A stretch of 24,000 nt of DNA from Bacillota bacterium (GCA_040756575.1 JBFLYP010000008.1:79523-103522); one strand, 5' to 3'. Positions 1,634 to 13,170 are shown, numbered from the stretch's first letter. Program-made: numbers and translations. The notes: generated by a model not told the origin, from the sequence alone.

Positions 1634-1990
1634 GTGGACCGGGAAAAACTTCCGGAAAAACGGGCGGCCTACACGAAGCTGCTCCGAGAGTCTCTGGAGC
1701 GGGCCGTCGCAGTACTTTCCTCATTAAAGGAAGTTGAGCGCGTCAGTCTCGTCGGTTCATATGCCTGCGGTCGGGCCGACCTGCTAACCGATCTCGACCT
1801 TTTGGTTGTGATGCGTACGAAGCGCCCGTTTCTTGAGCGGTTACGGGAGCTTTACAGTCTGCTGGCGCTCCCGGTAGACCTGGACCTTTTATGCTACACA
1901 CCCGAGGAACTTGACGCCTTAAAAGACCGGCCCTTTTTCAAAAAGTTGCTTCAGAAAGAAGTGGTGCTCTATGAGAAGAAGCCCTCTTGA
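1634..1990 (+). CDS. Minimal nucleotidyltransferase (MNT-type antitoxin of an HEPN-MNT module)
   Basis: GTG start after RBS gaggag. Pol-beta NTase motif [10 protein letters not shown]...DLDLLVV. Overlaps the downstream HEPN gene by 20 nt. Confidence 0.8.
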
Positions 1991-2375
1991 AGAAGGAAGA
2001 CGCTGGCTCGAGCAGGCCGGGGAAGACCTCCGCTGGGCCAAAGACCTGGCCGAGCGGGGCGGATACCACCTGGCCTGCTTTCTTGCCCAGCAGGTTAGCG
2101 AAAAGGCGGTCAAAGGTTTTCTTTACGCACAGGGTGAGGAGGTAGTGCTGGGCCACTCCATCGAACGGCTCTGTCACGCCGCCGCCCGCTGGGAACCGGA
2201 ATTTGCCGTGAAGGTGAAGCGCTGGTCCATCCTGGACGGCTATTACGTACCGACGCGTTACCCAAACGGCCTTCCAGATAGTATTCCTGCCCGCGTCTAC
2301 ACCCGTGATGCGGCCCGCGAAGCAGTGCGCTTAGCAGAAGAAGTTGTGGACTTTGTACGCCAGAAGCTCACATAG
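1971..2375 (+). CDS. HEPN domain protein (toxin partner of MNT)
   Basis: W..A..DL..A, GHSIERL and [13 protein letters not shown] are typical of HEPN (PF05168-like) proteins. Overlaps the MNT gene. Confidence 0.8.
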
Positions 2376-2378
2376 CCC

Positions 2379-2410
2379 AAACTTCGAACTAACAAACTTC
2401 GAACTATCTT
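2379..2410 (+). repeat. Heptamer array R2 (TTCGAAC type)
   Basis: aaacttcgaactaacaaacttcgaactatctt, immediately after the HEPN stop (2373-2375). Confidence 0.7.
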
Positions 2411-2457
2411 CTTATCGGTAGCACGCCGATCTTTCACAACTTGATACTGTTAACCGG

Positions 2458-2484
2458 CGCCTCCGCGAAATGGGCTACTTTTAG
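2458..2484 (+). pseudogene. 27-nt relic of the 3' end of a PAPS-reductase-family gene (..LREMGYF*)
   Basis: cgcctccgcgaaatgggctacttttag is near-identical to 8703-8729 and clearly related to 8047-8073 and 4286-4312. A heptamer array follows directly. Confidence 0.6.
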
Positions 2485-2535
2485 AACTTCGAACTGTTTA
2501 ACCTCGAACTATCTAACTTCGAACTATCGAACTAA
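2485..2535 (+). repeat. Heptamer array R3 (TTCGAAC type)
   Basis: aacttcgaactgtttaacctcgaactatctaacttcgaactatcgaactaa. Confidence 0.75.
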
Positions 2536-2552
2536 TGCTCAACCTCCCATAA

Positions 2553-2617
2553 GGTAAAGTATAATAAAAGAAAAAAACCGGCCCGTATCGAACGAAAAGT
2601 AATAGATGGGGGGTAAA
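2553..2617 (+). promoter_or_regulatory. Conserved about 65-nt leader, copy 1 (contains TATAAT at 2560-2565)
   Basis: ggtaaagtataat..aaaaaaaccggcccgtatcgaacgaaaagtaatagatgggggg aligns by eye with 10018-10078 at roughly 85% identity with a 4-nt indel. Confidence 0.45.
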
Positions 2618-2621
2618 CAGG

Positions 2622-2806
2622 AACTTACAGAACATCTACGAGTATATCGCTGCAGATTCCGAGGTTTACGCCAGCCCGGTTTGTAAAAAGTATCGTAAAA
2701 ACAAGCGAAAAGCTCACGAGCTTCCCGCTAATAAGTCGAATAGTTCCTGAATTTGCAGCCTACGGCTTGATAGCGGAAACAAGACGATTATCACGGTTAC
2801 GGTTAA
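2622..2806 (+). pseudogene. ParE/RelE-family toxin remnant (5'-truncated, frameshifted)
   Basis: One frame reads NLQNIYEYIAADSEVYASP. The +1 frame continues VKSIVKTSEKLTSFPLISRIVPEFAAYG. Together these match the ParE pattern (I..YIA.DSP..A ... L..FP..GR.VPE). No start codon or N-terminus. Confidence 0.4.
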
Positions 2807-2839
2807 GAAAAAAATTTTCTCCGAGAGGAGGAATGACTT

Positions 2840-3094
2840 GTGAAAATAGAGTACGATCCTGAAGTAGACGCCCTTTACATAGAGTTTCGCAGCGCGTCAC
2901 CCGTCCATAGCGTAGACATTGAAGAAGGAGTCAGCGTAGACCTGGACGAGGAACATCATATCGTTGGGGTAGAGATTCTGGACGCATCCGAAAGGCTTCG
3001 GGAAAACTTAGCCCGGATCGAGCTAACCGGCCTGCCGCTCTGGGAATTGCCCCTCAGGCGGCGCTTGCCGGCCTCATCCCCCGGTGCAGAATAA
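2840..3094 (+). CDS. DUF2283 domain protein
   Basis: GTG start after RBS gagaggagg. MKIEYDPEVDALYIEF...IVGVEILDAS is the characteristic DUF2283 signature. Confidence 0.75.
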   Translation: MKIEYDPEVDALYIEFRSASPVHSVDIEEGVSVDLDEEHHIVGVEILDASERLRENLARIELTGLPLWELPLRRRLPASSPGAE

Positions 3095-3116
3095 CCTGCG
3101 TAAGATGGGCTTTTGT

Positions 3117-3180
3117 TAACCCTGAACGCCGAACCTTGAACCCTGAACTTCGAACTTCGAACTATCTAACTTCGAACTAA
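3117..3180 (+). repeat. Heptamer array R4 (mixed types)
   Basis: taaccct gaacgcc gaacctt gaaccct gaacttc gaacttc gaactat ctaacttc gaactaa. Preceded by cctgcgtaagatgggcttttgttaa (3095-3119), a possible further relic of the ..LREMGYF* gene end. Confidence 0.8.
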
Positions 3181-3212
3181 GTTGCTGTTATTAAGAATGA
3201 GGTGAGACTTAC

Positions 3213-3437
3213 GTGGTAGACACAGCATCTTCTTCTCGCTTCCAAGAGGTCATCGAAATGGTCGAGACGTTACCGCCGGATGATCAGAAGCTATTGATCG
3301 AAATCATCCGGCAGCGCTTGATCCAGCACCGGCGCGCTGAAATAGCGGCGGAGGTCCAAGAAGCTCGTCATGCGTACCAGCGGGGCGAAGTCCGCCGGGG
3401 CACGGTAGGTGACCTCATGGAGGAACTGGCAGAGTGA
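3213..3437 (+). CDS. Putative antitoxin of the RelE-like toxin
   Basis: GTG start after RBS gaggtgag. Small acidic helical protein. Its stop overlaps the toxin start (GTGA). Confidence 0.55.
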   Translation: MVDTASSSRFQEVIEMVETLPPDDQKLLIEIIRQRLIQHRRAEIAAEVQEARHAYQRGEVRRGTVGDLMEELAE

Positions 3438-3718
3438 GAACCCTCGTCTGGAGTCCGACTTTCTTGCGTGCATTCAAGCGAACGGTTCGCCGGCAGCCGG
3501 AATTGCGAACAAGAGTTGAGCAAACCCTTAAACAGCTTGCCGAGGACCCTTTTCACCCCGCGCTGCATAGCCACAAATTGAAGGGAGAGTTAGCCGGCAC
3601 GTGGGCTTGCACCGTGGACTACAATAACCGTATCCTTTTCGAACTTGTCCGGAATCCAGAGTCAGGTGAGGAGGAGATTCTTCTCTTGACGATGGGCACC
3701 CACGATGAAGTGTACTGA
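3434..3718 (+). CDS. RelE/YafQ-family mRNA interferase toxin
   Basis: F.RAFKR..., DPFHPALHSHKLKGELAGTWACTVDYNNRILF...GTHDEVY is typical of RelE/StbE/YafQ-type toxins. Confidence 0.8.
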   Translation: MRTLVWSPTFLRAFKRTVRRQPELRTRVEQTLKQLAEDPFHPALHSHKLKGELAGTWACTVDYNNRILFELVRNPESGEEEILLLTMGTHDEVY

Positions 3719-3737
3719 ACAGGTTTCTTCTGTCCAA

Positions 3738-3846
3738 AGAGAGATCTTGGCGCTTATAAGCAGACTGGACCCAGGCAGAAAGAATTAAAAGTGTCATTCA
3801 CGGTTTCGTACGCTACCTCCGCAACCATAACAAACGTCGAACGTAG
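3738..3846 (+). pseudogene. 3' relic of a four-helix-bundle (23S rRNA IVS protein family) gene, frameshifted
   Basis: ..LGAYKQT.. then, after a frame shift, KSVIHGFVRYLRNHNKRRT*. Parallels LYKQTEEVKKTIYGFMRYLRSNPKKR* (9486-9859) and LYKQAEKTKSIICGLMRYLRTNPKP* (11740-11991). The stop lies in a heptamer unit. Confidence 0.4.
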
Positions 3847-3867
3847 AACGTAGAACGCAGAACGGCG
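3833..3867 (+). repeat. Heptamer array R5 (5 units)
   Basis: aacgtcg aacgtag aacgtag aacgcag aacggcg. Confidence 0.8.
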
Positions 3868-3872
3868 CAAAC

Positions 3873-4312
3873 AAGATCGCTACGACATTCACCGGCGGCA
3901 AGGACTCCACCACGCTCTTGCACATGCTCCGGCAGGTGGGCGGCGGGAAAGTGCCCGTCCGGGTGATAAAAATCGATACCGGCGCCGACTTCCCGGAGAT
4001 TTACGCCTTCGTTGACCGGCTCTTCACCGCCATCCGCTGGGACGAGCAGGAGGCCCGGCAGGATGAACAGTACTTCTCCGAGGGCAAAGACCCCGATCAC
4101 TTGCGGGTGCAGCCCACCCTGCACTTTAAGGAGATCGACATCTGGAGCTACATCCGCAAGTACGAACTTCCTTTCTGCGAGCTTTACCGCGCGGCTACCG
4201 CAGCCTTGACTGCGCGCCCTGCACCGGCCGCGGCGGCCCCAGCGAGCGTGGCGCCCGCTCCCGGGATAAAGAGGCCGCCATGCAGCGCCTGCGGGAGATG
4301 GGCTATTTCTAA
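3873..4312 (+). pseudogene. PAPS-reductase-family gene, decayed paralog of 7411-8073
   Basis: Nucleotide-level homolog of 7483-8073. It is 5'-truncated (lacks about the first 25 codons). It carries an in-frame 150-bp deletion (FVDRL|FTAIRW; the intact copy has 50 extra residues AKEWEL...GLKAV). A 1-nt deletion at ELYR|(RGYRSLDC) shifts the frame. Tracked ORF 3918-4358 is the resulting chimeric read-through. Confidence 0.85.
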
Positions 4313-4336
4313 CAAATGCGAGATAGGTTACAATAT
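4313..4336 (+). repeat. 24-nt shared joint caaatgcgagataggttacaatat, copy 1 (contains TACAAT)
   Basis: Identical to 8074-8097. Both copies follow the stop of a PAPS-reductase-family copy and precede different TA modules. Confidence 0.8.
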
Positions 4337-4372
4337 CTATAGATCCAAGTTTTTGTGAAAGGCAGAGGAAAA

Positions 4373-4609
4373 ATGAAAAAGGAGTTAATCCAATCGGATC
4401 CTGATGTTATGATGGGCAAACCGGTCATTGCCGGGACGCGGATTCCTGTTTCCCTGATTCTTGAAAAGCTTGCCGCCGGGGAAACGATGGAGCAGATCCT
4501 CCAGGCTCATCCGCGCTTGACGGAAGAGGCGATCCGGGCCGCCCTGGCTTTCGCCGCGGAAGCCGTTAAAGCCGATATAGCATACGCAATACGGGAAAAA
4601 GCCAAATGA
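4373..4609 (+). CDS. DUF433 domain protein (putative antitoxin)
   Basis: ATG at 4373 after ggcagagga. DPDVMMGKPVIAGTRIPVSLILEKLAAGET..ILQAHPRLTEEAIRAAL is the DUF433 signature. ATGA overlap with the next gene. Confidence 0.8.
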   Translation: MKKELIQSDPDVMMGKPVIAGTRIPVSLILEKLAAGETMEQILQAHPRLTEEAIRAALAFAAEAVKADIAYAIREKAK

Positions 4610-4974
4610 TCTTCCTGGCGGATGAAAGCGTTGACCAGCAGATCATCGACCGGTTAAGAGAACACGGCTACGTAGTGATAGCCGTCGTGGAAATGGAGCC
4701 GGGTATTAGCGATACAGCCGTGTTAGATTTAGCGAATGCGCGTGAGGCTTTGTTAGTTACAGCGGACAAAGACTTTGGTGAACTCGTCTTCCGCCAGCGC
4801 CGGGTAAGTAAAGGTATAATCCTGCTACGCTTAGCAGGCCTATCCCAAGAAAAGAAAGCGGCGCTGGTTGCCCAAGCGATAGAGACTCACTTAAAAGAAC
4901 TGGAAGGTTCGTTTGGGGTTATAACGCCTGGCTCCTTGCGTATCAGGAAAATGCGCGTCAAAAAAACTAACTAA
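4606..4974 (+). CDS. DUF5615 PIN-like protein (putative toxin partner of DUF433)
   Basis: MIFLADESVD..L...GY.V..V......SDTAVLDLA..REALLVTADKDFGEL matches the DUF5615/Mut7-C-like pattern. Confidence 0.75.
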   Translation: MIFLADESVDQQIIDRLREHGYVVIAVVEMEPGISDTAVLDLANAREALLVTADKDFGELVFRQRRVSKGIILLRLAGLSQEKKAALVAQAIETHLKELEGSFGVITPGSLRIRKMRVKKTN

Positions 4975-5145
4975 ACCTTGAACCCTGAACGTCGCACCTT
5001 GCACCTTGCACCTTGCACCTTGAACCTTGCACCTTGCACCTTGAACCTTGAACCTTGAACCTTGAATGTCGAACGTTGAACGTTGAACGGACCCCAAAGG
5101 TCCATCCCTTAAGCTGTAACGCCGAACGTTGAACGTCGAACGAGG
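4974..5145 (+). repeat. Heptamer array R6 (longest: 16 phased units, hairpin motif, 4 more units)
   Basis: aaccttg aaccctg aacgtcg (caccttg)x4 aaccttg (caccttg)x2 (aaccttg)x3 aatgtcg (aacgttg)x2, then motif 5085-5114, then aacgccg aacgttg aacgtcg aacgagg. Confidence 0.95.
5085..5114 (+). repeat. Conserved 30-nt hairpin motif, copy 1
   Basis: gaacGGACCccaaaGGTCCatcccttaagc: 5-bp stem GGACC/GGTCC with a 5-nt loop. Confidence 0.9.
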
Positions 5146-5158
5146 GGGGATAAAAAAC

Positions 5159-5395
5159 TTGAAACGCTTTAATTTAACCAGTCTCATATGGAAGGAAGAA
5201 CACGGCTACGTCTCAAAATGCCCGGAACTCGGCGTGGCCAGCGCCGGCGACACAATCGAAGAAGCATTTGCCAACCTGAAAGAAGCGGTAGAGCTTTATT
5301 TAGAAAACGCTAAAGAACTGGGCCTCTTGGATGAATTGAGTTTCGCGCTCAGGCCGGATAAATTTACCGCCTCTTTCGAGGTCGAGGCCCGGTGA
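5159..5395 (+). CDS. hicB: HicB-family antitoxin
   Basis: TTG at 5159 after RBS gagggggg. ..EEHGYVSKCPELGVASAGDTIEEAFANLKEAVELYLE is the HicB/UPF0150 N-domain pattern. Overlaps the hicA start. Confidence 0.7.
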   Translation: MKRFNLTSLIWKEEHGYVSKCPELGVASAGDTIEEAFANLKEAVELYLENAKELGLLDELSFALRPDKFTASFEVEAR

Positions 5396-5642
5396 CCCGG
5401 CTGCCTGTTTTATCCGATACCGAAGTGATCAGAATTCTCCTCAGACTCGGCTTCCAGTACGCTCCGAGGCGAGGAAAGGGCAGTCATATTGCGTTGTATA
5501 AAGCCGGCGAATCTGGACACCGGTTGCTGGTAATCGTACCGAAAAGAAAAGAAAAGAGATTCCCCGCGGCACCCTAATGGCAATTTTAGAACAGGCACAA
5601 GTCAGCCGTGAAGAATTCCTGCGCCTGCTTGGGAGAGAATAA
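5392..5642 (+). pseudogene. hicA: HicA-family toxin with a frameshift in an A-rich run
   Basis: Frame 1 gives ..VIRILLRLGFQYAPRRGKGSHIALYK...VIVPKRKEKRFPAAP* (stop 5575-5577). The expected HicA C-terminus EIPRGTLMAILEQAQVSREEFLRLLGRE* is in another frame (5556-5642). The switch lies in gaaaagaaaagaaaagag (5541-5558). Confidence 0.7.
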
Positions 5643-5660
5643 CGCTTCGTCTGCTGATTT

Positions 5661-5751
5661 GAACCCTAAACGCCGAACGCCGAACGTAGAACGCTAAACC
5701 TTAAACGTTGAACGTTGAACGTCGAACCTTGAACCTTGAACGTTGAACGAA
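5661..5751 (+). repeat. Heptamer array R7 (13 phased units)
   Basis: gaaccct aaacgcc gaacgcc gaacgta gaacgct aaacctt aaacgtt gaacgtt gaacgtc gaacctt gaacctt gaacgtt gaacgaa. Confidence 0.9.
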
Positions 5752-5776
5752 CCCCAGAGGTCCATCATTTTGAGCT
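5745..5776 (+). repeat. Hairpin motif, copy 2 (degenerate)
   Basis: gaacGAACCccagaGGTCCatcattttgagc: the stem carries one mismatch and the 3' tail has diverged. Confidence 0.7.
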
Positions 5777-5804
5777 TAAACGCTTAAGAGAGGAGGTAAA
5801 CCAA

Positions 5805-5888
5805 ATGGAGCTACTTCGCGAAGTGGCTGAAGCGCTGGACATGAAACAGGATTTTCTCGCCCGGAAAAGCCTGAACCTTGAACGTTGA
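5805..5888 (+). pseudogene. Truncated duplicate of the first about 23 codons of the 10082-10360 gene
   Basis: MELLREVAEALDMKQDFLARKSL is identical in protein to 10082 onward. It then runs into array R8 and stops (NLER*). It has its own RBS gaggagg. Confidence 0.75.
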
Positions 5889-5949
5889 ACGTTGAACGTT
5901 GAACGTCGAACGTAGAACGTCGAACGTAGTACGTCGCACGCCGAACGAG
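5873..5949 (+). repeat. Heptamer array R8 (11 units)
   Basis: gaacctt (gaacgtt)x3 gaacgtc gaacgta gaacgtc gaacgta gtacgtc gcacgcc gaacgag. Confidence 0.9.
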
Positions 5950-5957
5950 GTGAAAAA

Positions 5958-6218
5958 ATGGCCACCGAAAAAAAGGATTTAAAAGAAATCTTGCGCCTTG
6001 CCAGCCAGCTTCCGGAGGAGCAACAATTAGAACTTATTACCAAGTTGTCCTTACGCCTCCGCGTTAAAGGTGAAAGAGAAAATACCGGTAAACGATTGTC
6101 TGCTGCCAAAGAAGCACTCTTGGAAAAGACAAAGGGAGCTTGGGCCAACAATCCTGAAATAGAACGCGCGCTTGCAGAACTCAACCGGAGTTGGCAGGAA
6201 TGGGCAAAGGAATTGTAA
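5958..6218 (+). CDS. Putative antitoxin (VapB-position) of PIN toxin
   Basis: ATG after gaggtgaaaaa. Its N-terminus MATEKKDLKEILRLASQLPEEQQLELITKLS is paralogous to 10827-11057. Overlaps the PIN gene. Confidence 0.55.
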   Translation: MATEKKDLKEILRLASQLPEEQQLELITKLSLRLRVKGERENTGKRLSAAKEALLEKTKGAWANNPEIERALAELNRSWQEWAKEL

Positions 6219-6592
6219 TTGATACCGGCGTTATAATTGCTCACCTGAGAGCAGCCGGCAAAACAAAGACCTCTTTCCAGGAGGCTATTGAGCGGTATCC
6301 AAAATGTTATATATCGTCAATCACTGCCTGGGAAATCGAATACGGTGCCTGTCGCGCCGGGCGCCCTTCAGATCTCACGGATATTTTGGGATTGGTTAAA
6401 GTGTTGCCTTTTGACCTGGAAGATGCACGCGTAGCTGCAAAAGTGCACGCGGAACTGAAATCGCGCAACCAAGAAATAGGCATCCGGGACGTCTTTATCG
6501 CCGGAACCTGCCTGGCAAATGGTCTGCCTCTTTTAACCGCCAACGTCAAGCACTTCCGGCGAGTAAGTAACTTAGAGGTAATACAACCTTGA
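6200..6592 (+). CDS. vapC: PIN domain ribonuclease toxin (VapC family)
   Basis: GIVIDTGVIIAHL (first acidic residue), ...ITAWEIEYG..., ...IGIRDVFIAGTCLANGLPLLTANVKHF. ATG at 6200 preferred over TTG at 6191. The stop TGA lies in the first heptamer. Confidence 0.8.
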   Translation: MGKGIVIDTGVIIAHLRAAGKTKTSFQEAIERYPKCYISSITAWEIEYGACRAGRPSDLTDILGLVKVLPFDLEDARVAAKVHAELKSRNQEIGIRDVFIAGTCLANGLPLLTANVKHFRRVSNLEVIQP

Positions 6593-6692
6593 ACCTTAAA
6601 CGTTGAACTTTGAACCTTGAATGTTGAACGTTGAACGTTGAACGGACCCCAGAGGTCCATCCCTTAAGCCTGAACCTTGAACGTTGAACGAA
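6585..6692 (+). repeat. Heptamer array R9 (8 units, hairpin motif, 3 units)
   Basis: aaccttg aacctta aacgttg aactttg aaccttg aatgttg aacgttg aacgttg, then motif 6640-6669, then gaacctt gaacgtt gaacgaa. Confidence 0.9.
6640..6669 (+). repeat. Hairpin motif, copy 3
   Basis: gaacGGACCccagaGGTCCatcccttaagc. Confidence 0.9.
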
Positions 6693-6709
6693 AAAAGGAG
6701 TGACCTGCG

Positions 6710-6907
6710 ATGAAAAAGTCTCTGAAAAACTACGACGACCTCAACGTGACAGAAAAGCGGATCAGCTATCTCTTAGGAGCACGGTTGCGAGAAACAGACA
6801 GGGTCAAGAATGCGATGAAAAAACAGGATGGGATCAGGAAGAAGCATCCTGCACCTGAAGGTTGGGATAGCGCTTCCGTAATTAGAAGTTGGCGGGAAAC
6901 CCGGTGA
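6710..6907 (+). CDS. Putative antitoxin (VapB-position)
   Basis: ATG after RBS aaggag. Small charged protein. Its stop overlaps the GTG of the downstream PIN fragment (GTGA). Confidence 0.5.
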   Translation: MKKSLKNYDDLNVTEKRISYLLGARLRETDRVKNAMKKQDGIRKKHPAPEGWDSASVIRSWRETR

Positions 6908-7310
6908 GTGTTTTAGACGCCTCTGTAATACTGAAGTGGTTCATAAATGAAGAGGACAGCGACCAGGCACTCCGGCTCAGAGAAGAATTCTACTCAGGTA
7001 AAAGGGATATCGTAGTTCCTGATCTTCTATTATATGAGGTAGTGAACGCTTTAAAATACAATCCAACTTTTAAAGAAACTGAAATCAAGAAAGCGGTTAA
7101 AACGCTTTTCGACCTTGGAATAAAGATAATAACTCCCGCTTTGAAAAAGCTAAAGGACTGCGGCTAAAATAAAAATATAGGGATAAGCCGGATATCTCGT
7201 TTACGGATTTAACTTCTATCGTAATTATGCAGGAGCTGAAAATCTCGCGGATTTTACCAGAGGACGAACACTTCATGCAGGTCGGCCTGAATTTCGAACT
7301 TGCTCCATAA
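6904..7310 (+). pseudogene. vapC: Disrupted/chimeric PIN (VapC) toxin
   Basis: The N-terminal part VSVLDASVILKWF...VVPDLLLYEVVNAL stops at 7165-7167 after about 88 codons. A different frame (7173-7310) encodes a PIN C-terminus of another subtype: DISFTDLTSIVIMQELKISRILPEDEHFMQVGL..*. Confidence 0.6.
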
Positions 7311-7311
7311 C

Positions 7312-7393
7312 GAACCTTGAACCTTGAACGTTGAACCTTGAACGGACCCCAAAGGTCCATCAACCTAAGCTTTAACGTTGAACGTTGAACAGA
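7312..7393 (+). repeat. Heptamer array R10 (4 units, hairpin motif, 3 units)
   Basis: gaacctt gaacctt gaacgtt gaacctt, then motif 7340-7370, then taacgtt gaacgtt gaacaga. Confidence 0.9.
7340..7370 (+). repeat. Hairpin motif, copy 4
   Basis: gaacGGACCccaaaGGTCCatcaacctaagc (tail variant). Confidence 0.85.
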
Positions 7394-7410
7394 CAGGAGG
7401 CCCCCTACCC

Positions 7411-8073
7411 GTGAGTCTGAACGAAAAAGAAGCGAAAAGTCTGAAGCTGATTCGCGAAACCCTCGACCGCTTCGGCCCGGACAAAGTCGCTACCACCTGG
7501 ACCGGCGGCAAGGACTCCACCACCCTCCTGCACATGCTCCGGCAGGTGGGCGGCGGCAAAGTCCCCGTCCGGGTGATAAAAATCGATACCGGCGCCGACT
7601 TCCCGGAGATTTACGCCTTCGTGGACCGGCTGGCGAAGGAATGGGAGTTAGACCTCCACGTCCTCCGCAACGAAGAAGCGATAAAAACCATCAAAGTGGC
7701 GGAGGACCCGCTCCAGTGCTGCTACCAGCTCAAGACCGTGCCGCTCCTCAACTTCATCCGGGAGCAGGGCTTGAAAGCGGTCTTCACCGCCATCCGTTGG
7801 GATGAGCAGGAGGCCCGGCAGGATGAGCAGTACTTCTCCGAGCGGAAGGATCCCGACCACCTGCGGGTGCAGCCCCTCCTGCACTTCCGGGAGATCGACA
7901 TCTGGAGCTACATCCGGAAGTACGATTTGCCCTTCTGCGAGCTCTACCGCCGGGGCTACCGCAGCCTCGACTGCGTGTCCTGCACCGGCCGCGGCGGCCC
8001 CAGCGAACGCGACGCCCGCTCCCGGGACAAGGAGGCCGCCATGCAGCGCCTGCGGGAGATGGGCTATTTCTAA
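7411..8073 (+). CDS. PAPS reductase / PP-loop ATP pyrophosphatase family protein (intact copy)
   Basis: GTG at 7411 after RBS caggagg; the tracked TTG at 7378 lies in the repeat. PP-loop-like TWTGGKDSTTLLHML. CysH/CysD-like LRVQPLLHFREIDIWSYIRKYDLPFCELYRRGYRSLDCVSCT. Confidence 0.85.
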   Translation: MSLNEKEAKSLKLIRETLDRFGPDKVATTWTGGKDSTTLLHMLRQVGGGKVPVRVIKIDTGADFPEIYAFVDRLAKEWELDLHVLRNEEAIKTIKVAEDPLQCCYQLKTVPLLNFIREQGLKAVFTAIRWDEQEARQDEQYFSERKDPDHLRVQPLLHFREIDIWSYIRKYDLPFCELYRRGYRSLDCVSCTGRGGPSERDARSRDKEAAMQRLREMGYF

Positions 8074-8097
8074 CAAATGCGAGATAGGTTACAATAT
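8074..8097 (+). repeat. 24-nt shared joint, copy 2 (TACAAT at 8090-8095)
   Basis: Identical to 4313-4336. Confidence 0.8.
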
Positions 8098-8121
8098 AGA
8101 CTGAGAGGGGTGCGCCAGGTA

Positions 8122-8391
8122 ATGAAGATTTTCTATACAGTCGTCCTGAGAAAACTCTCCGACCAGTGGGTAGCCCTGTGCCTGGAAAACGGTTGCGTGG
8201 GACAGGGAACCACCCGGGAGGAAGCCGTAGAGAAGCTCAGATCCGCGGTTTCTTCCATAATGGAGGCAGCACATGACGATCCGGATATATTTGTGGCACC
8301 GGTACCGATTAAGGAACTTCATGAGTTTCTGACCGTCGGCGGCGTCGATCCTGTGGCCGAAACCTTTGAGCTAAGGGCCGTAAATGCCTAA
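8122..8391 (+). CDS. hicB: HicB-family antitoxin
   Basis: ATG at 8122. MKIFYTVVLRKLSDQWVALCLENGCVGQGTTREEAVEKLRSAV is the HicB N-domain pattern. Overlaps hicA by 8 nt. Confidence 0.7.
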   Translation: MKIFYTVVLRKLSDQWVALCLENGCVGQGTTREEAVEKLRSAVSSIMEAAHDDPDIFVAPVPIKELHEFLTVGGVDPVAETFELRAVNA

Positions 8392-8626
8392 GAACATTCC
8401 GTCGCTGAAGCCCCGCCAGTTGGTCCGTCTGTTGGAGGGAGCGGGCTGTCGCTTTTACAGGGAGGGCAAAGGCGATCACCGCCTTTACGTGCGCTACGCT
8501 GAAGGAAAGAAGTTGGTGGTTCCCATAGATATGGGGCTTACGGAACTCTCCCCAGTATATATCTTGCGCGTACTCAGACAGTTCAGGTTCACAGACGCAG
8601 AAATTGAAGAAATGTTGAAATCATAG
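8384..8626 (+). CDS. hicA: HicA-family mRNA interferase toxin
   Basis: LKPRQLVRLLEGAGCRFYREGKGDHRLYV is the YcfA/HicA pattern. Paired with the upstream HicB. Confidence 0.8.
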   Translation: MPKNIPSLKPRQLVRLLEGAGCRFYREGKGDHRLYVRYAEGKKLVVPIDMGLTELSPVYILRVLRQFRFTDAEIEEMLKS

Positions 8627-8729
8627 CCTGTGCCCCTGCACCGGCCGCGGCGGGCCTACCGAGCGCGGCGCCCGTTCCCGGGATAAAGAGGCAGCCATGC
8701 AGCGCCTCCGCGAAATGGGCTACTTTTAA
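8627..8729 (+). pseudogene. About 100-bp relic of the PAPS-reductase-family 3' end
   Basis: Aligns with 7971-8073 (tgcaccggccgcggcgg...atgcagcgcct.cg.ga.atgggcta.tt.taa). Starts right after the hicA stop. Its own stop (8727-8729) is the first unit of array R11. Confidence 0.8.
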
Positions 8730-8800
8730 CGTTGAACGTTGAACGTTGAACGTTGAACGTTGAACGGACCCCAGAGGTCCATCCCTTAAGCTTTAACGAG
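8727..8800 (+). repeat. Heptamer array R11 (5 units, hairpin motif, 1 unit)
   Basis: taacgtt (gaacgtt)x4, then motif 8762-8791, then tt taacgag. Confidence 0.9.
8762..8791 (+). repeat. Hairpin motif, copy 5
   Basis: gaacGGACCccagaGGTCCatcccttaagc, identical to copy 3. Confidence 0.9.
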
Positions 8801-8809
8801 GTGAAAAAA

Positions 8810-9034
8810 ATGGGACTCGAAAACACAAGAGACGAACTGCTCCTAAAACAAATCAACACCTTAGAACGCGAAGTAGAGCGCCTCAAGCGGAACCTTCTTC
8901 ATAACCTAACTGCGAGGACCGGCCGAAAAAAAGCCAAACCCTCTCTGTTTGGAAGCGTCCGGAGCGGCGACATTGCCGATGAAGAGATCCAAAAGGCAAA
9001 GACGGCTTTGTTTAGAGACCTGGAGGATCTGTAG
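8810..9034 (+). CDS. Putative antitoxin (VapB-position)
   Basis: ATG at 8810 after gaggtgaaaaaa; the tracked upstream start lies in the repeat. Coiled-coil-like small protein immediately upstream of the PIN gene. Confidence 0.5.
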   Translation: MGLENTRDELLLKQINTLEREVERLKRNLLHNLTARTGRKKAKPSLFGSVRSGDIADEEIQKAKTALFRDLEDL

Positions 9035-9051
9035 CGCTTATGGAGGAGGAT

Positions 9052-9438
9052 ATGCTGTATGTTCTTGATACCCATGTGCTCATTTGGTATTTCACCGGTA
9101 GTAGACGCCTTAAACAGCAGCTTAAAGAACTCATTGATCATGTTCGGTCAGCAGGTGGACGTCTGTTAGTCCCTACGATAGTGCTGGCCGAAGCAATGGA
9201 CATCGCCGAAAAAGGCCGTGTACGCTTCGACTTCACCGAAATGTACCGGTTGATCAAGGAAGAACCGGAGTTCGAAATCGTCAGCTTCAGCCCGGATATC
9301 CTTGAAGAGTCGACGCGGATCAGTAATATTCCTGAAATTCACGACCGAATCATCGTCGCTACAGCTAAATTTTACCAGGCAGGTATACTAACAAAAGACA
9401 GGATAATCCGTAGCTCAGGAGAGACAGAAACGCCTTGA
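9052..9438 (+). CDS. vapC: PIN domain ribonuclease toxin (VapC family)
   Basis: MLYVLDTHVLIWYF..., ...VPTIVLAEA..., ...HDRIIVATA.....ILTKD. RBS ggaggagga. The stop TGA lies in the first heptamer. Confidence 0.8.
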   Translation: MLYVLDTHVLIWYFTGSRRLKQQLKELIDHVRSAGGRLLVPTIVLAEAMDIAEKGRVRFDFTEMYRLIKEEPEFEIVSFSPDILEESTRISNIPEIHDRIIVATAKFYQAGILTKDRIIRSSGETETP

Positions 9439-9485
9439 ACGCCGCACGCCGAACGTAGAACGTAGAACGTCGAACGGTGAAACAA
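9437..9485 (+). repeat. Heptamer array R12 (7 units, in phase up to the next ATG)
   Basis: gaacgcc gcacgcc gaacgta gaacgta gaacgtc gaacggt gaaacaa, followed directly by ATG 9486. Confidence 0.9.
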
Positions 9486-9859
9486 ATGCCAATCGAAAAA
9501 TTCGAAGACATCCAGGCCTGGCAGCTTGCCCGGGAGTTGACCCAGGGGTGTATACAGCAACAAACCGGAAGGAATTCAGCCGTGACTATGGCCTGCGCGA
9601 CCAGGTGCAGCGCGCCGCCGTCCCCATAATGGCCAATATCGCGGAGGGATTCGACAGCCAGAGCAACCAGACGTTCCTGCAGTTCCTGAGCTACGCGGTC
9701 CGGTCGGCTACCGAGGTCCAGTCCCATCTCTACGTCGCCCTGGACCAAGGCTACATAAACGAAACTACGTTTGCCGAATTGTACAAACAAACGGAGGAAG
9801 TTAAAAAAACGATTTACGGCTTTATGCGCTACCTGCGCTCCAACCCCAAAAAACGTTGA
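9486..9859 (+). pseudogene. Four-helix-bundle protein (23S rRNA intervening-sequence protein family), apparent 1-nt frameshift near codon 21
   Basis: ATG 9486 gives MPIEKFEDIQAWQLARELTQG, the typical family N-terminus (F.DL.vWQ.A..L). The rest of the family signature (VYTAT..F..DYGLRDQVQRAAVPIMANIAEGF...FLQFLSYAVRSATEVQSHLYVA) is in the frame of tracked ORF 9548-9859. Could instead be a sequencing error or a GTG-initiated shorter product. Confidence 0.7.
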
Positions 9860-10016
9860 ACTATCTAACTTCGAACTAATAAACTTCGAACTTCGAACTA
9901 TCCAACTTCGAACTTCGAACTATCCAACTTCGAACTTCGAACTATCTAACTTCGAACTTCGAACTTCGAACTAACAAACTTCGAACTAATTAACCTTGAA
10001 CCTTGAACGTTGAACG
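9854..10016 (+). repeat. Heptamer/octamer array R13 (TTCGAAC type, 22-nt higher-order repeat; last 3 units TTGAAC type)
   Basis: cgttgaa ctatctaa cttcgaa ctaataaa (cttcgaa)x2 ctatccaa (cttcgaa)x2 ctatccaa (cttcgaa)x2 ctatctaa (cttcgaa)x3 ctaacaaa cttcgaa ctaattaa ccttgaa ccttgaa cgttgaa. Confidence 0.95.
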
Positions 10017-10030
10017 GGGTAAAGTATAGT
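10003..10030 (+). promoter_or_regulatory. Candidate sigma-A-type promoter: TTGAAC (from the last heptamers), 16 nt, TATAGT
   Basis: TTGAAC at 10003-10008 and TATAGT at 10025-10030, inside conserved leader copy 2 (10018-10078). Sequence resemblance only. Confidence 0.4.
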
Positions 10031-10081
10031 AAAAAAAACCGACCAGTACCGAACGAAAAATAATAGATGGGGGTAGACGAA

Positions 10082-10360
10082 ATGGAACTGCTTCGGGAAG
10101 TGGCTGAAGCGCTCGATATGAAACAGGATTTTCTCGCCCGGAAAAGCCTGACCTTATACCTGGAAAAAGAACTGCGCGACACGGAAGCAGCGATTTTTAA
10201 AATCACCTCCAGATACGGCGTTAAGTCAGTATTTGAACTTGATGAAAGACTGAAACAAGGGAAACTGAAAGAAGAAGATATGCTTGACGACTTCCTTGAA
10301 CTTGACTACCTGGAGGCAAAAAGGGATAAGATCCGCCGTGTCCTGGAGAAGATTCAATGA
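10082..10360 (+). CDS. Putative antitoxin-position protein upstream of the DUF6516-like gene
   Basis: ATG at 10082 after gatggggg. Helical charged protein MELLREVAEALDMKQDFLARKSL.... ATGA overlap with the next gene. Confidence 0.5.
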   Translation: MELLREVAEALDMKQDFLARKSLTLYLEKELRDTEAAIFKITSRYGVKSVFELDERLKQGKLKEEDMLDDFLELDYLEAKRDKIRRVLEKIQ

Positions 10361-10737
10361 TAACGCTGGAAAAGCTCCGGAGAATCGCCGAAGTCGAGTA
10401 TTGTGATATAGTGGCATTTACGGAGATTATGCAAAATAAGCTCCGGATTTACCTGATAGATAAGTCATTTGTTGATGTTGGGTTTTCAGTAAAGGTCCCT
10501 GGCCGCTACTCCTATCACTGGGAAAGACGACACGTAGATCAAACGATCTATCGCCATGATAATTTTCCGGACCCACGTTGGAAGGCGGTCTCGACCTTTC
10601 CTAAGCACTTCCATAAAGGGTCGGAGAACCAAGTGGAGGAGAGTCACATCAATGACGACCCAGGGACAGGCATCCGTCAATTTATGGAATTCGTCCAAAG
10701 ATTGATTAGAGGTCTAACTTCGAACTGTAAACCTTGA
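10357..10737 (+). CDS. DUF6516-like (TumE-type) putative toxin
   Basis: YSYHWERRH...IYRHDNFPDPRWKAVSTFPKHFHKGSE resembles the DUF6516 pattern (Y.YHW......RyDNaPH......fPhHkH). Family recalled from memory, not searched. The last codons (LTSNCKP*) are repeat units. Confidence 0.5.
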   Translation: MITLEKLRRIAEVEYCDIVAFTEIMQNKLRIYLIDKSFVDVGFSVKVPGRYSYHWERRHVDQTIYRHDNFPDPRWKAVSTFPKHFHKGSENQVEESHINDDPGTGIRQFMEFVQRLIRGLTSNCKP

Positions 10738-10817
10738 ACGAGGAGTGTTTTTGATGATCGAACTTCGAACTATCTAACTTCGAACTTCGAACTATCGAAC
10801 TTCGAACTATTAACCGA
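10714..10817 (+). repeat. Heptamer array R14 (two blocks: 10714-10743 and 10758-10817)
   Basis: ctaacttcgaactgtaaaccttgaacgagg ... cgaacttcgaactatctaacttcgaacttcgaactatcgaacttcgaactattaaccgagg. Confidence 0.85.
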
Positions 10818-10826
10818 GGTGAAAAA

Positions 10827-11057
10827 ATGGCCACCGAAAAGAAAAAAATATCAGAGCTTGTGCGACTCGCCGGCAGACTTCCGGTAAACGAACAATTAGA
10901 ATTAATCGCCAGACTTTCTGCCCAGCTTGCAGGTAAGAGAGCCGCTCACATTGAAAAAAGAACATGGATGGAAATGGCGGGTCTCGGCGCCGAAATTTGG
11001 AAAGACGTTGACGCCCAGGAGTATGTCCGCCGGGAGAGAGCAAGTTGGGAAGATTAG
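10827..11057 (+). CDS. Putative antitoxin (VapB-position), paralog of 5958-6218
   Basis: Same leader gaggtgaaaaaATGgccaccgaaaa. N-terminus MATEKKKISELVRLAGRLPVNEQLELIARLS. Confidence 0.55.
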   Translation: MATEKKKISELVRLAGRLPVNEQLELIARLSAQLAGKRAAHIEKRTWMEMAGLGAEIWKDVDAQEYVRRERASWED

Positions 11058-11536
11058 CGGCGATCCTCAAAGCGTATCGCACTGTCGCACTGGATACCGC
11101 GGTTTTTATCTACCACTTCGAGAAAAACGAGAAGTATAGTGTAATAACTGAAGAAATTTTCTCGCGTCTGGACAAAGATAAAAACTTCGCTGCGGTTACT
11201 TCGGTCATCACCGTGCTGGAAGTTTGCGTAAAGCCTATTAAAGAATCGCGGCAGGACCTAGCGACCGAGTACACACAAAAATTGCTTTATGATGATAAAC
11301 TGGCAACCTGGGTTGTTGATGGAAATATAGCCCAAAAAGCTGCCGAAATCAGGGCTAAGTACGGTATAAGGACTCCTGATGCGATTCAAGTAGCCACAGC
11401 CATTACAGCGGAAGCAGATGTTTTTATCACCAATGACACCGCCTTAAAGAAAATCGAAGAAATCGAAGTACTGGTCCTCAAAGAACTTGCCGCCCCAGTG
11501 GAAGAGGCTAACACTCCAGCAAACGCCGAACGTTGA
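11045..11536 (+). CDS. vapC: PIN domain protein (VapC-like toxin); start uncertain
   Basis: VALDTAVFIYHF..., ...VITVLEV..., ...RTPDAIQVATAITAEADVFITND. The stop TGA lies in a heptamer unit. Confidence 0.7.
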   Translation: MGRLAAILKAYRTVALDTAVFIYHFEKNEKYSVITEEIFSRLDKDKNFAAVTSVITVLEVCVKPIKESRQDLATEYTQKLLYDDKLATWVVDGNIAQKAAEIRAKYGIRTPDAIQVATAITAEADVFITNDTALKKIEEIEVLVLKELAAPVEEANTPANAER

Positions 11537-11569
11537 ACGCCGAACGCCGAACGTAGAACGCAGAAAGGA
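11521..11569 (+). repeat. Heptamer array R15 (7 units)
   Basis: aaacgcc gaacgtt gaacgcc gaacgcc gaacgta gaacgca gaaagga, running into RBS aggagg. Confidence 0.9.
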
Positions 11570-11582
11570 GGCTTTAATTGCA

Positions 11583-11792
11583 ATGGATTCTGTCAAGCAA
11601 ACGGCCATCGAAGCCATAAAGCGGCTCCCTGACGGATGTTCCTTGGAGGACATTATGTATCAGGTCTATTTTATCTCGCAGGTATTTGAGGGTTTAAGGG
11701 ACGCTCAGGAAGGCCGGGTAATAACCAGCGAAGAATTAGATGCAGCGCGCCGCCGTCTCGGTTATGGCAAATATAGCGGAGGGCTTCGATAG
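11583..11792 (+). pseudogene. Antitoxin-like ORF whose 3' end is replaced by a junction into a four-helix-bundle gene fragment
   Basis: MDSVKQTAIEAIKRLPDGCSLEDIMYQVYFISQVFEGLRDAQEGRVITSEEL looks like a small addiction-module component. From about 11736 the DNA is homologous to 9603 onward, read out of frame. Confidence 0.5.
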
Positions 11793-11991
11793 CCAGAGCA
11801 ACCAGGTGTTTTTACAGTTCCTGACCTACGCGGTCAGGTCGGCTACCGAGGTCCAGTCGCATCTCTACGTCGCCCTGGACCAAGGCTATGTAACCAAAGA
11901 TACCTTTGATAACTTGTACAAGCAGGCGGAAAAAACGAAGAGCATTATATGCGGCCTTATGCGGTATCTCCGCACAAACCCTAAACCTTAA
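11736..11991 (+). pseudogene. Four-helix-bundle (23S rRNA IVS protein family) gene, 5'-truncated copy
   Basis: QRAAVSVMANIAEGFDSQSNQVFLQFLTYAVRSATEVQSHLYVALDQGYV... parallels 9606-9859. It lacks about the first 40 codons and any RBS. Confidence 0.7.
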
Positions 11992-12065
11992 ACCTTAAAC
12001 CTTAAACCTTAAACCTTGAACCTTGAACGTCGAACGTTGAACCTTGAACGTTGAACGCAGAACTG
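11975..12065 (+). repeat. Heptamer array R16 (13 units; last array of the island)
   Basis: caaaccc (taaacct)x5 tgaacct tgaacgt cgaacgt tgaacct tgaacgt tgaacgc agaactg, then RBS ggagga. Confidence 0.95.
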
Positions 12066-12078
12066 GAGGAAACTTGCG

Positions 12079-13170
12079 ATGGCCGCAGATTATAGCCATC
12101 TAAAAACGCGCATCCAGGGATGGCTCTTCGAAAAAGTGGTTAGGTACCTGTTACGACTCAACGATTACACCATCATTTCTCTTGACTCATTAGCGGGTAA
12201 AGCAGAGAAATATTACCGGGACAGGGGAAAAGGTTTGGAAATACGCGGGCGCGGCGAGTGGCATCAGATAGATGCGGCAGGGCAGTTTCAATTTATACCG
12301 CCGTTTGTATATCAAATTCGCCTTCTTTCTGAAGCAAAATGTTACCGGCAGACCGCAGTGGGTCTTCCTATTGTTCGCGGATTTGTAGGCGCCCTTAAAG
12401 ACATCAGCGAAAACTACTTTACGGATGTTGATGACCCCGGGAATAATGATTATAACCTCCGGTTTACCGATTGTGGTGCTATTTTTTCCACCTCGGGATT
12501 TTCAGATGAAGCGGAAAATTACGCTTTTGCTCACGGTATCAAGTTAATCAGTTATAAAAATTTACCGATTATGCGGGATATCACTGAATGCATCTTCAAT
12601 TTCGTCGACTCGTTAGAATCTTTCCTCCCCCACATAGCCAAGAGAGAACCTGAACTCCGGCGAGAGATTTGTAACATATTACAGGGTTCTGGCTTTAATG
12701 ATATGCGAGACCACAGTTCGCTGCCACCACAATTAAATCAGCACATTCTCAAATTGCGCGACATACTCTTTGAAATCAAATTTTCCGCCGTCGGTTTAGC
12801 GGCAGGAGGGTTCCCGGTGCACTTGGTCGGCACGCAGGAGTTCCCACGCAAGGCGGTTGCAGAACGTGACCAAGTCGAATGCCACATTTACCACGAACAA
12901 GGCAACCCGTTCCATGTCAGGCTGGTAGACCGGGTCTGGAGCGCTTATTTTTCAGTACCCGAGGTGATGATGAGCAAATTTTTAGCTAATAGAGAAATGA
13001 TGGTTGAATTCAAAGGTCGAAGCTTATCCTTTATTGACATACCCATCAAGATTAATGGTATGCGCCGCATTATCAGGCTTGAGCTGGATCCGAAGTGGCT
13101 GGAACAGGTCAGGAAAACCGCCAAGGACCGGCAATCGAGAAAACAGCGAGGGGCGTCAGATAAGGGGTAG
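12079..13170 (+). CDS. Mrr-like restriction-endonuclease-fold (PD-(D/E)xK) N-terminal domain protein with uncharacterised C-terminal half
   Basis: WLFEKVVRYLLRLNDYTI (FE..v..LL...GY), HQIDAAG (D), LLSEAKCY ((E/Q)xK), VRGFVGAL, CGAIFSTSGFSDEAENYAFAHGIKLISY (g.fiTts.Ft..A..yA....I.Li). I recognise no motifs in residues about 175-363. Visibly more AT-rich than its neighbours. Confidence 0.5.
   Translation: MAADYSHLKTRIQGWLFEKVVRYLLRLNDYTIISLDSLAGKAEKYYRDRGKGLEIRGRGEWHQIDAAGQFQFIPPFVYQIRLLSEAKCYRQTAVGLPIVRGFVGALKDISENYFTDVDDPGNNDYNLRFTDCGAIFSTSGFSDEAENYAFAHGIKLISYKNLPIMRDITECIFNFVDSLESFLPHIAKREPELRREICNILQGSGFNDMRDHSSLPPQLNQHILKLRDILFEIKFSAVGLAAGGFPVHLVGTQEFPRKAVAERDQVECHIYHEQGNPFHVRLVDRVWSAYFSVPEVMMSKFLANREMMVEFKGRSLSFIDIPIKINGMRRIIRLELDPKWLEQVRKTAKDRQSRKQRGASDKG

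Follow-up and report, generated by a model that had tools for sequence, protein, structure and literature searches.

A short palindromic motif in heptamer arrays of a narrow clade of subsurface Bacillota: likely core of a small dispersed repeat

In the stretch of Bacillota DNA analyzed here (24,000 nt, referred to as the window), small toxin-antitoxin (TA) cassettes are separated by arrays of tandem repeats, and at several of these junctions the array contains a short palindromic motif. A preliminary description of this DNA had suggested that the motif defines the 5' edge of a class of cassettes and that it might be a recombination core site, a protein operator, or an RNA element. The question raised by the locus is what the motif belongs to: the cassettes, their transcripts, or the arrays. 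We favor, with confidence somewhat better than even, the reading that it is the core of a small dispersed repeat that resides between genes in the GAACNNN arrays of uncultured subsurface Bacillota forming a narrow clade and is not a feature of TA cassettes.

RESULTS

The palindromic unit and its array context

The cassettes of the window comprise MNT/HEPN, DUF2283, a RelE/YafQ-like pair, DUF433/DUF5615, two HicAB, three to four VapBC, a TumE pair, 23S-IVS proteins, and PAPS-reductase copies and fragments. They are flanked by a sugar transferase gene and polysaccharide-synthesis genes, and the 14 junctions between them consist of tandem repeats, either GAACNNN heptamers or a 15-mer of the AACTTCGAACTATCT type. 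The hairpin unit is present at 5 of the 14 junctions and absent from 9. No recombinase or transposase domain was recognized in any sizeable ORF of the window. The features considered below are as follows (all on the + strand).

1634-12063, +: cassette region, small TA and related cassettes, all + strand, with 14 repeat-array junctions between them
4974-5142, +: GAACNNN heptamer array hosting copy 1, about 16 repeats upstream and 3 downstream
5085-5120, +: unit copy 1; GAAC tag 5085-5088, loop CCAAA, ATC, tail CCTTAAGC, end TGTAAC
5089-5093 and 5099-5103, +: stem arms of copy 1, GGACC and GGTCC
5660-5749, +: heptamer array upstream of copy 2
5745-5781, +: unit copy 2, degenerate; 5' arm GAACC, loop CCAGA, tail ATTTTGAGC, end TTAAAC
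5872-5947, +: heptamer array without unit, first "empty site," GCACGCC GAAC/GAGGTGAAAAAATGGCC
6585-6690, +: heptamer array around copy 3; its first heptamer holds the VapC stop TGA (6590-6592)
6640-6675, +: unit copy 3, downstream of the VapBC-a cassette; loop CCAGA, tail CCTTAAGC, end CTGAAC
7312-7390, +: heptamer array around copy 4
7340-7376, +: unit copy 4; loop CCAAA, tail AACCTAAGC, end TTTAAC
8728-8766, +: heptamer array upstream of copy 5, 5.6 perfect AACGTTG repeats
8762-8797, +: unit copy 5; first 30 nt as in copy 3, end TTTAAC abutting the RBS GAGGTGAAAAAAATG
9437-9476, +: heptamer array without unit, second "empty site," TTGAAC/GCCGCACGCCGAACGTA

The + strand of the window carries five copies of GAAC-GGACC-N5-GGTCC-ATC (at 5085, 5745, 6640, 7340, and 8762), with a chance expectation of about 0. 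The 30-mer GAACGGACCCCARAGGTCCATCCCTTAAGC matched exactly at 5085-5114, 6640-6669, and 8762-8791 (0 expected from 100 shuffles), the last two copies being identical to each other. Its 18-nt core, GGACCCCARAGGTCCATC, gave five matches in the window against 0.06 expected; that at 7344-7361 is exact but leads into a different tail, and that at 5749-5766 has one mismatch, GAACC replacing GGACC. The positions, identities, and loop variation (CCAAA or CCAGA) that had been described before, including a tail variant near 7340 and a degenerate copy near 5745, were all reproduced. All five copies continue the GAACNTT heptamers in register, as had been noted for their position after TTGAAC-type arrays. 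Each is followed by heptamers, an RBS, and a start codon (TTG 5170, ATG 5806, ATG 6710, GTG 7412, and ATG 8811 for copies 1 to 5); this order agrees with the preliminary description, but the number of heptamers, given there as one to four, was found to be zero to three. The unit is longer than the 30-mer: from the first base after GAAC through a terminal xAAC it measures 32 to 33 nt (5089-5120, 5749-5781, 6644-6675, 7344-7376, and 8766-8797), with the consensus (GAAC)-GGACC-N5-GGTCC-ATC-N4-5-YWAGC-N2-3-xAAC.

An intrinsic terminator was ruled out, none being called at the five sites and no T-run following the stem. Promoter scans likewise called none of them, in agreement with the earlier view that the motif is neither a terminator nor a sigma-70 promoter. 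In Rfam, nothing in the window reached the gathering score, and a permissive scan gave only two chance miRNA hits.

The surroundings of individual copies differ between relatives. What follows copy 2 is a truncated fragment of the TumE-antitoxin gene (5806-5870); its unit, tail, and gene were found intact in the related sequences L051, L055, and L065. At the position of copy 3, after VapBC-a, a unit is also present in MAG044 and L065, yet with other tails and other downstream cassettes. Copy 4 precedes a full-length PAPS-reductase-family gene (7412-8073) whose L065 orthologue has no unit upstream, and the unit-plus-RBS module of copy 5 precedes another gene, VapB-a, in L065.

Several other properties of the arrays were recorded. 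Five cassette genes have their stop codons inside the first heptamers of the next array (6590-6592, 9436-9438, 9857-9859, 11534-11536, and 11989-11991), as TGA within TTGAAC or TAA within CTTAAAC. Since 7 and 3 are coprime, a sense TTGAACN array puts TGA in every frame within 21 nt, so that any ORF fused to such an array is terminated. Arrays with a 15-nt period (AACTTCGAACTATCT, 7+8) occupy 2378-2534, 3145-3179, 9858-10001, and 10758-10810 of the window. In MAG044 the hairpin unit often lies at the switch between 15-nt-period and GAACGNN arrays, with tails AGCATAAGYC before AACTTCGAACTA arrays and CCCTAAGC before GAACGNN arrays. A repeated module of about 70 nt, at 2536-2620 and 10016-10083, precedes two different cassettes; it contains a -10-like GGTAAAGTATA(A/G)T and ends in ATAGATGGGGG. 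Beside the arrays, the scan found a promoter-like sequence only at this module (10003-10030).

Distribution among genomes and neighboring genes

A genome search, as the preliminary description had proposed, was made with the exact 22-mer against one genome from each of 185,579 species. It returned 64 copies in 50 stretches from seven uncultured subsurface Bacillota MAGs (Ammonifex sp. SURF_55, DeMMO5_7, MAG044, MAG002, MAG163, Thermoanaerobacteraceae Yes71-27, and Desulfotomaculum sp. UWMA-0229) and none from any other species scanned. Each MAG has 6 to 16 exact copies, except for Yes71-27 with one, and further variants besides. A scan with a free loop added 20 metagenome contigs, with the loops CCAAA, TCAAA, CTAAA, TTAAA, CTGAA, GCAGA, and TCAGA; viral contigs gave no match to the motif.

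A census of GACC-N5-GGTC in 494 kb of retrieved related DNA gave 158 cores. One base upstream of 150 of these is an xAAC tag, which in 139 cases is GAAC. Of the tagged cores, 136 are preceded by at least two heptamers within 40 nt, 98 are flanked on both sides by heptamers, CATC comes next in 120, and 140 fall outside predicted genes. Solitary units without a flanking array also exist (L032 2751, L027, and L003/L017). The genes that start within 200 nt downstream of units on the same strand are mostly housekeeping genes, among them those for ALAD/HemB, EPSP synthase (aroA), EngA/Der, ribosomal protein L27 (rpmA), and ABC transporters; others encode a sulfatase, a glycosyltransferase, radical-SAM enzymes, and TpiA, and one unit lies 17 nt upstream of the tmRNA gene (ssrA).

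The proposed role of the motif as the 5' boundary of a cassette class was not supported, and none of the functions suggested with it (recombination core site, operator, or RNA processing element) drew positive support. The unit occurs at a minority of the window junctions; the same cassettes in relatives have it on the other side or lack it; units also precede housekeeping genes and the tmRNA gene; and in the second TA array of MAG044 all copies are antisense to the cassettes. The unit does not, on this evidence, mark TA cassettes; it is probably part of a mosaic intergenic repeat system. An antitoxin operator was rejected, since units precede unrelated TA families as well as housekeeping genes. 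No description of this repeat family was found in the searchable literature, nor did searches on heptamer repeats yield anything relevant for Desulforudis, Ammonifex, or Desulfotomaculum or for an association with TA systems.

Other repeats were seen in the same DNA. Different heptamer families (TATTCTG/TATTCTA, GCTGATA, AGTCACG, CTGACTA, and CGGTGTA) lie beside units in Ammonifex sp. SURF_55 (L010, L017, L021, L025, and L043) and in L023, L033, and L042. A short repeat, GTGTCAAGGAACCGTCCCCTGTCACAC, recurs directly after arrays in L009, L011, and L028 (MAG044 contig 2), and in L007 it takes the form ATGTGTCAGAGAACCGTCCCCTGACAC after an RBS (1167-1215 and 6702-6750). A conserved module of about 70 nt (..CACGACGATTAATCGTCGCCACCGGGAATGAAAACGGTTCAATCGC..TTATAAAC) precedes the heptamer-unit block in L004, L053, L056, L067, and L070 and has no match in Rfam.

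Subfamilies, predicted structure, and orientation

In an unbiased survey of array interruptions, most of those of 31 to 33 nt were found to share the ends GAAC-N-GACC and (T)AAGC..xAAC and to differ in their interiors. Subfamily A is the hairpin, subfamily B is GGACCCGGATTCCAYGCNGTATTAGC, with no predicted structure, and subfamily C is a different hairpin; the length of the unit is 32±1 nt across these subfamilies with unrelated interiors.

As RNA, the + strand is predicted to form only a 5-bp hairpin of about -8 kcal/mol (37 C; z about -0.4), and the complementary strand a 10-bp stem including three G·U pairs (-16.9 kcal/mol; z, -2.3); folding as single-stranded DNA is weak for both strands. 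No covariation was detected across 47 distinct units, paired cells amounting to 49.8% versus 49.9% in shuffles and the covariation score being no higher than that of shuffles or slid registers. Within subfamily A, with wobbles counted, 87% of cells are paired on the complementary strand, compared with 64% on the + strand (slid registers, 56% and 50%), a strand asymmetry that is partly compositional. Given the lack of covariation and a hairpin-free sister subfamily, the hairpin is a property of the dominant subfamily, held by sequence conservation; nothing supports it as a conserved structural requirement. The arms are also GGWCC, that is, AvaII-type sites, but a link to restriction-modification was dropped because GGWCC is not avoided (observed/expected, 0.86 to 0.96).

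Relative to the downstream gene, 49 units have the same orientation and 14 the opposite in a first set, and 70 versus 28 over all loci, giving a sense fraction of about 71 to 78% with both orientations occurring. The heptamer arrays behave likewise (49 sense versus 17 antisense), and in the second TA array of MAG044 contig 2 (46.7-64 kb) the genes lie on one strand and all arrays and hairpins on the other. As regards replication direction, in the available fragments GC skew tracks the coding strand and is unrelated to the strand of the unit (32 versus 36). Sense copies lie at no fixed distance from the start codon (17 to 75 nt), and 7 of 12 antisense copies are found 25 to 34 nt past a stop codon. 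The sense excess may reflect purging of the orientation that would place the stronger complementary-strand hairpin into mRNAs.

These data bear on the possibility that the unit is a cis-acting RNA element, the hairpin serving in a polycistronic transcript as a processing site or exonuclease barrier that confers cistron-specific stability. REP hairpins in operons of Escherichia coli stabilize individual cistrons in this way. The intergenic and mostly sense position shortly before start codons would suit such a role, as would the copy in the leader of the tmRNA gene and the antisense copies past stop codons, whose transcripts would carry the strong 10-bp hairpin. However, the common orientation yields only the weak 5-bp RNA hairpin, covariation is lacking, and sister subfamilies occupy the same slot without this hairpin. 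Together with the unfixed distance to the start codon, the occurrence of both orientations, the many cassette junctions without a unit, and the lack of an Rfam match, this makes an RNA element decidedly unlikely.

Gain and loss of the unit as a discrete block

Two clean pairs of filled and empty orthologous sites were identified and checked by hand, automated searches being swamped by the self-similarity of the arrays. Upstream of VapB-a, L065 reads GAACGCC GAAC-(GGACCCCAAAGGTCCATCCCTTAAGCTTTAAC)-GAGGTGAAAAAATGGCC, with the 32-nt unit in parentheses, and the orthologous window site (5934-5960) reads GCACGCC GAAC-( )-GAGGTGAAAAAATGGCC. Downstream of VapC-c, L065 reads GAGAAC-(GGACC...AACCTAAGCTTTAAC)-GCCGCACGTCGAACGTA, with a 33-nt unit after GAAC, and the orthologous window site (9435-9457) reads TTGAAC-( )-GCCGCACGCCGAACGTA. 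The boundaries are alike in both pairs, GAAC followed by 32 to 33 nt ending in TAAC versus GAAC alone. The variation at the motif among relatives that the preliminary description had anticipated thus exists, as an insertion/deletion polymorphism of the unit.

Orthologous spacers of MAG002 and Yes71-27 contain tandem units at the same positions, three versus two on one side. Blocks of arm plus loop have been swapped whole between them (CCAAA versus TTGAA; TGACC-TTTAA-GGTCT versus GGACC-CCAAA-GGTCC), with the flanking gene 91 to 95% identical. Clustered units are arranged head to tail in one orientation. Some units are themselves split by other sequences, namely, CCTGCCTGTGCGTG palindromic expansions, which bring them to 62 to 118 nt, and in one case a MITE-like element, about 190 nt long and bounded by CCCAGCACTCAG terminal inverted repeats. 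In several orthologous copies the 22-nt core is identical despite a flank divergence of 12 to 25%. Split units were located at L007 1397-1458 and 2061-2165, L032 4884-5000, L028 (complement, about 6500-6618), and L045 1815-2028, the expansions being of CCTGCCTGTGCGTG / CGCACGCAGACAGG repeats; the MITE-like element also occurs beside units in L004, L011, L028, L040, L044, and L070.

These observations show that the unit is multicopy, intergenic, and clade restricted and that it comes and goes as one discrete piece, precisely 3' of a GAAC. We infer that it spreads at the DNA level, for which there would be two routes. It might be inserted 3' of GAAC, a tetranucleotide that the arrays offer many times, with the palindrome as the recognition element for a putative trans-acting enzyme, or arrays might pass it to one another by gene conversion or recombination. 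A tblastn search of 494 kb of related DNA with IS608 TnpA, RAYT, XerD, and Hin queries gave no match, and, as neither this search nor the domains of the window yielded a transposase or recombinase, the mobilizing activity is hypothetical.

Other points also temper the interpretation as a dispersed repeat. Precise deletion between AAC direct repeats would explain the filled and empty sites equally well; the clean pairs number only two; an identical 22-nt core amid diverged flanks could mean functional selection instead of selfish spread; and the sense bias is also compatible with a role at the RNA level.

A further alternative is that the unit is a passive variant, a sequence of array origin that unequal crossing-over, slippage, and gene conversion between arrays carry along. 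Such carriage would account for the heptamers that nearly always lie on both sides of the unit, for the block-wise swaps between subfamilies at orthologous sites, and for an A/G loop polymorphism common to all tail types, and array breakpoints are indeed frequent. It sits poorly with the solitary units, with the precise and identical boundaries of both filled/empty pairs, and with a length that stays constant across subfamilies of unrelated interior, and we consider it unlikely.

The conserved core could also be bound, as double-stranded DNA, by a dimeric global regulator or nucleoid-associated protein, with GGACC and GGTCC as half-sites at a fixed spacing of 5 bp. The arms and spacing are kept while the first loop bases are free (CC, TT, CG, TC, CT, GA, and GC), the core is conserved at orthologous sites with diverged flanks, and the free hairpin is too weak to matter alone. 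On the other hand, tandem runs of two or three units, variable distances to genes, both orientations, and unrelated classes of neighboring genes are not expected of such a site. Orthologous units swap arms and loops as blocks, and the conserved asymmetric flanks (GAAC, CATC, and ..AGC..xAAC) are unexplained by a symmetric dimer. We regard this possibility as very unlikely.

Reshuffling of cassettes at the arrays

Ten window cassettes recur in MAG044 contig 2 (24-32.3 kb) with 82 to 98% identity but in a wholly different order, and homology between the two regions stops in arrays. In L051 and L065, two blocks of 99.2% identity are found in the order A-B versus B-A, and the breakpoints lie in heptamers 20 to 60 nt upstream of hairpins, not at the motif, where the preliminary description had proposed to look for cassette exchange. 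In L056, the gene that follows one upstream module and its unit differs from that in L067 and L070. The hairpin is not tied to a fixed cassette, with the one exception of the TumE antitoxin, upstream of whose gene the unit-tail-RBS module is kept in four sequences.

The junctions are imprecise. PAPS-reductase 3' fragments lie at 2459-2485 and 8627-8729, and an IVS fragment is fused at 11740. The TumE-antitoxin fragment (5' 65 nt, 5806-5870) is fused to a heptamer array at 5866 (...aagcctga/accttgaacg), the break falling at a heptamer-like microhomology, where the intact gene (10084-10360) reads ...aagcctgaccttatacc. Such imprecision fits exchange within arrays through homology or microhomology, rather than a site-specific event at the hairpin. 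The arrays, not the hairpin, may supply the homology for permuting, truncating, and fusing cassettes.

Could the motif nonetheless be an attC-like core site, at which a dedicated recombinase encoded elsewhere in the genome moves the cassettes? Such a site would explain why cassettes are permuted among three sequences (the window, MAG044, and L065), and also between L051 and L065 (at 99% identity), and why orientation is uniform within an array region whatever the strand of the genes. As with attC bottom strands, the complementary strand gives the more stable fold, and downstream of VapBC-a the hairpin core is common to three genomes whose tails and next cassettes differ. Yet 9 of 14 window junctions have no unit, the mapped breakpoints lie in heptamers upstream of the hairpin, and the junctions are imprecise, with arrays joined to truncated genes at 5866, 8627, and 11740. 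A large number of copies adjoin housekeeping genes that belong to no cassette, no recombinase was found in the window or by tblastn in the 494 kb, and the hairpin is far shorter than any attC. We judge a dedicated recombination site to be most unlikely.

Sites of the attC type are imperfect palindromes of 57 to 141 nt with paired R''/R' and L''/L' boxes and extrahelical bases, in a system with IntI and attI. With sedentary chromosomal integrons the region shares a long, co-oriented array of small, mostly promoterless, TA-rich cassettes, repeats at every junction, an order permuted between close relatives, and a uniform repeat orientation per array. It differs in that no intI or attI was found here and that the junction repeat is a heptamer array instead of a 57- to 141-nt palindrome; the palindrome here has 15 nt (a 5-bp stem and a 5-nt loop) and no same-strand inverse core. 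Where integrons have one site at each cassette 3' end with an internal crossover, here 5 of 14 junctions have a unit and the breakpoints lie in heptamers, the hairpin being optional and the junctions imprecise, with gene truncations. A likeness of GTTGAAC to the integron core site GTTRRRY is probably coincidental, since only one heptamer variant fits and there is neither an inverse core nor an integrase. The LexA "Cheo box" (GAAC-N4-GTTC) was rejected by inspection, the arrays being direct and not inverted repeats.

It is conceivable, though we find it distinctly improbable, that the GAACNNN arrays and palindromic units together form an integrase-independent scaffold for cassette shuffling, a Gram-positive functional analogue of the chromosomal integron. 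An ORF fused to an array would stop within 21 nt and the array end would provide an RBS, while recombination between arrays would permute, delete, and capture small TA and defense cassettes. The order swap at 99% identity would then indicate that shuffling is ongoing in natural populations, and a putative enzyme that nicks at GAAC might enter at the hairpin unit and so start these events.

Further rearrangements were noted. The PAPS-reductase family is represented by one full gene (7412-8073) and three partial copies (3865-4312, 8627-8729, and 2459-2485). The HicAB2 cassette (8124-8626) lies between direct repeats of about 100 nt from the PAPS-reductase 3' end (7975-8073 versus 8627-8729, about 85% identical), and the same 3' fragment follows arrays in L034 and MAG044 (L048). 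A promoter-like caaatgcgagataggttacaatat is common to the positions after the stop codons at 4313 and 8074. At L051 about 2020 versus L065 about 5700-5500 (99% identity), VapC-c of L051 has lost about 175 nt internally, which joins the gene body directly to the terminal array, a further case of a deletion that ends at an array.

Comparison with known repeat systems

The interpretation that we favor, a small dispersed repeat housed in heptamer arrays, has its closest counterpart in cyanobacteria. Elhai et al. 2008 (Genome Res 18:1484) reportedly described the elements SDR1-8, embedded in STRR tandem heptamers of Nostocaceae. Shared with these are tiny dispersed units (a few tens of nucleotides), often hairpin forming, inside tandem heptamer arrays, with nested insertions, presence/absence polymorphism, and restriction to one coherent clade. 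To our knowledge, no encoded mobilizing protein is known for SDRs, and none was found here. The recent mobility taken to characterize SDRs has its parallel in the two filled/empty pairs, the nesting, and the different unit numbers in orthologous spacers, and their position in tandem heptamers has its parallel in the census (136 of 150 cores with heptamers upstream and 98 of 150 with heptamers on both sides). The unit-bearing genomes also contain several tandem heptamer families, as does Nostoc with its STRRs. The hosts are Bacillota rather than Nostocaceae, the heptamer (GAACNNN) is unrelated, and the unit is somewhat longer (32 to 33 nt including xAAC); a shared structure with compensatory changes is a feature of SDRs, whereas none was found for the unit. 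The 2008 work is cited in PMC3116915, PMC5861425, and PMC2884548.

REP/BIME and REPIN-RAYT elements of Proteobacteria are intergenic, multicopy short palindromes with an unpaired GTAG or CGTC tag, and REPs possibly have roles in mRNA stability and protein binding (PMC3733652, PMC3116915); Firmicutes families are not mentioned in the REP survey PMC3733652. Common to REP/BIME and the unit are the intergenic, multicopy occurrence, a conserved unpaired tetranucleotide at one end, mosaic clusters, and use as insertion targets. The tag is GAAC here as opposed to GTAG or CGTC, and the stem is 5 bp (9 to 10 bp with wobbles on the complementary strand). Units are tandem and direct, whereas those of REPINs form inverted doublets, and the RAYT and IS608 TnpA queries had no match in the 494 kb.

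The neisserial intergenic mosaic elements offer a looser parallel. A prophage recombinase is known to act in integration at their dRS3 (ATTCCC-N8-GGGAAT). Like the unit, dRS3 is a short inverted repeat with a fixed spacer that punctuates arrays of other repeats and adjoins loci of exchangeable (silent or toxin) cassettes where repeats promote recombination; its sequence and host are unrelated, and the unit is not known to have a prophage recombinase as partner. Overall, the unit lacks the defining features of attC and of GTAG/CGTC REPs. It appears to resemble most the heptamer-embedded SDRs of Nostocaceae and, more loosely, BIME/NIME mosaics, a likeness in architecture.

Small palindromic intergenic repeats are already well described in Proteobacteria, Neisseria, and cyanobacteria. 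A family limited to a few deep-subsurface lineages and combined, as in Nostoc, with heptamer arrays suggests that the joining of heptamer array and mini-hairpin either evolved more than once or reflects a shared mechanism. The GAACNNN arrays break assemblies and, because stop codons and RBSs lie inside the repeats, mislead gene callers. Since TA and defense cassettes are rearranged at them, the arrays bear on how the accessory genomes of slow-growing subsurface bacteria are read.

In the window, the cassettes at 5392-5600, 6889-7310, 9487-9859, and 11583-11991 look degraded; among them are an apparently frameshifted HicA and 23S-IVS, a truncated PIN gene, and an antitoxin-like ORF fused to an IVS fragment. 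A gene with an Mrr-like restriction endonuclease domain (12079-13170) marks the downstream edge of the cassette region and is found at the same edge in L065, with 92% identity.
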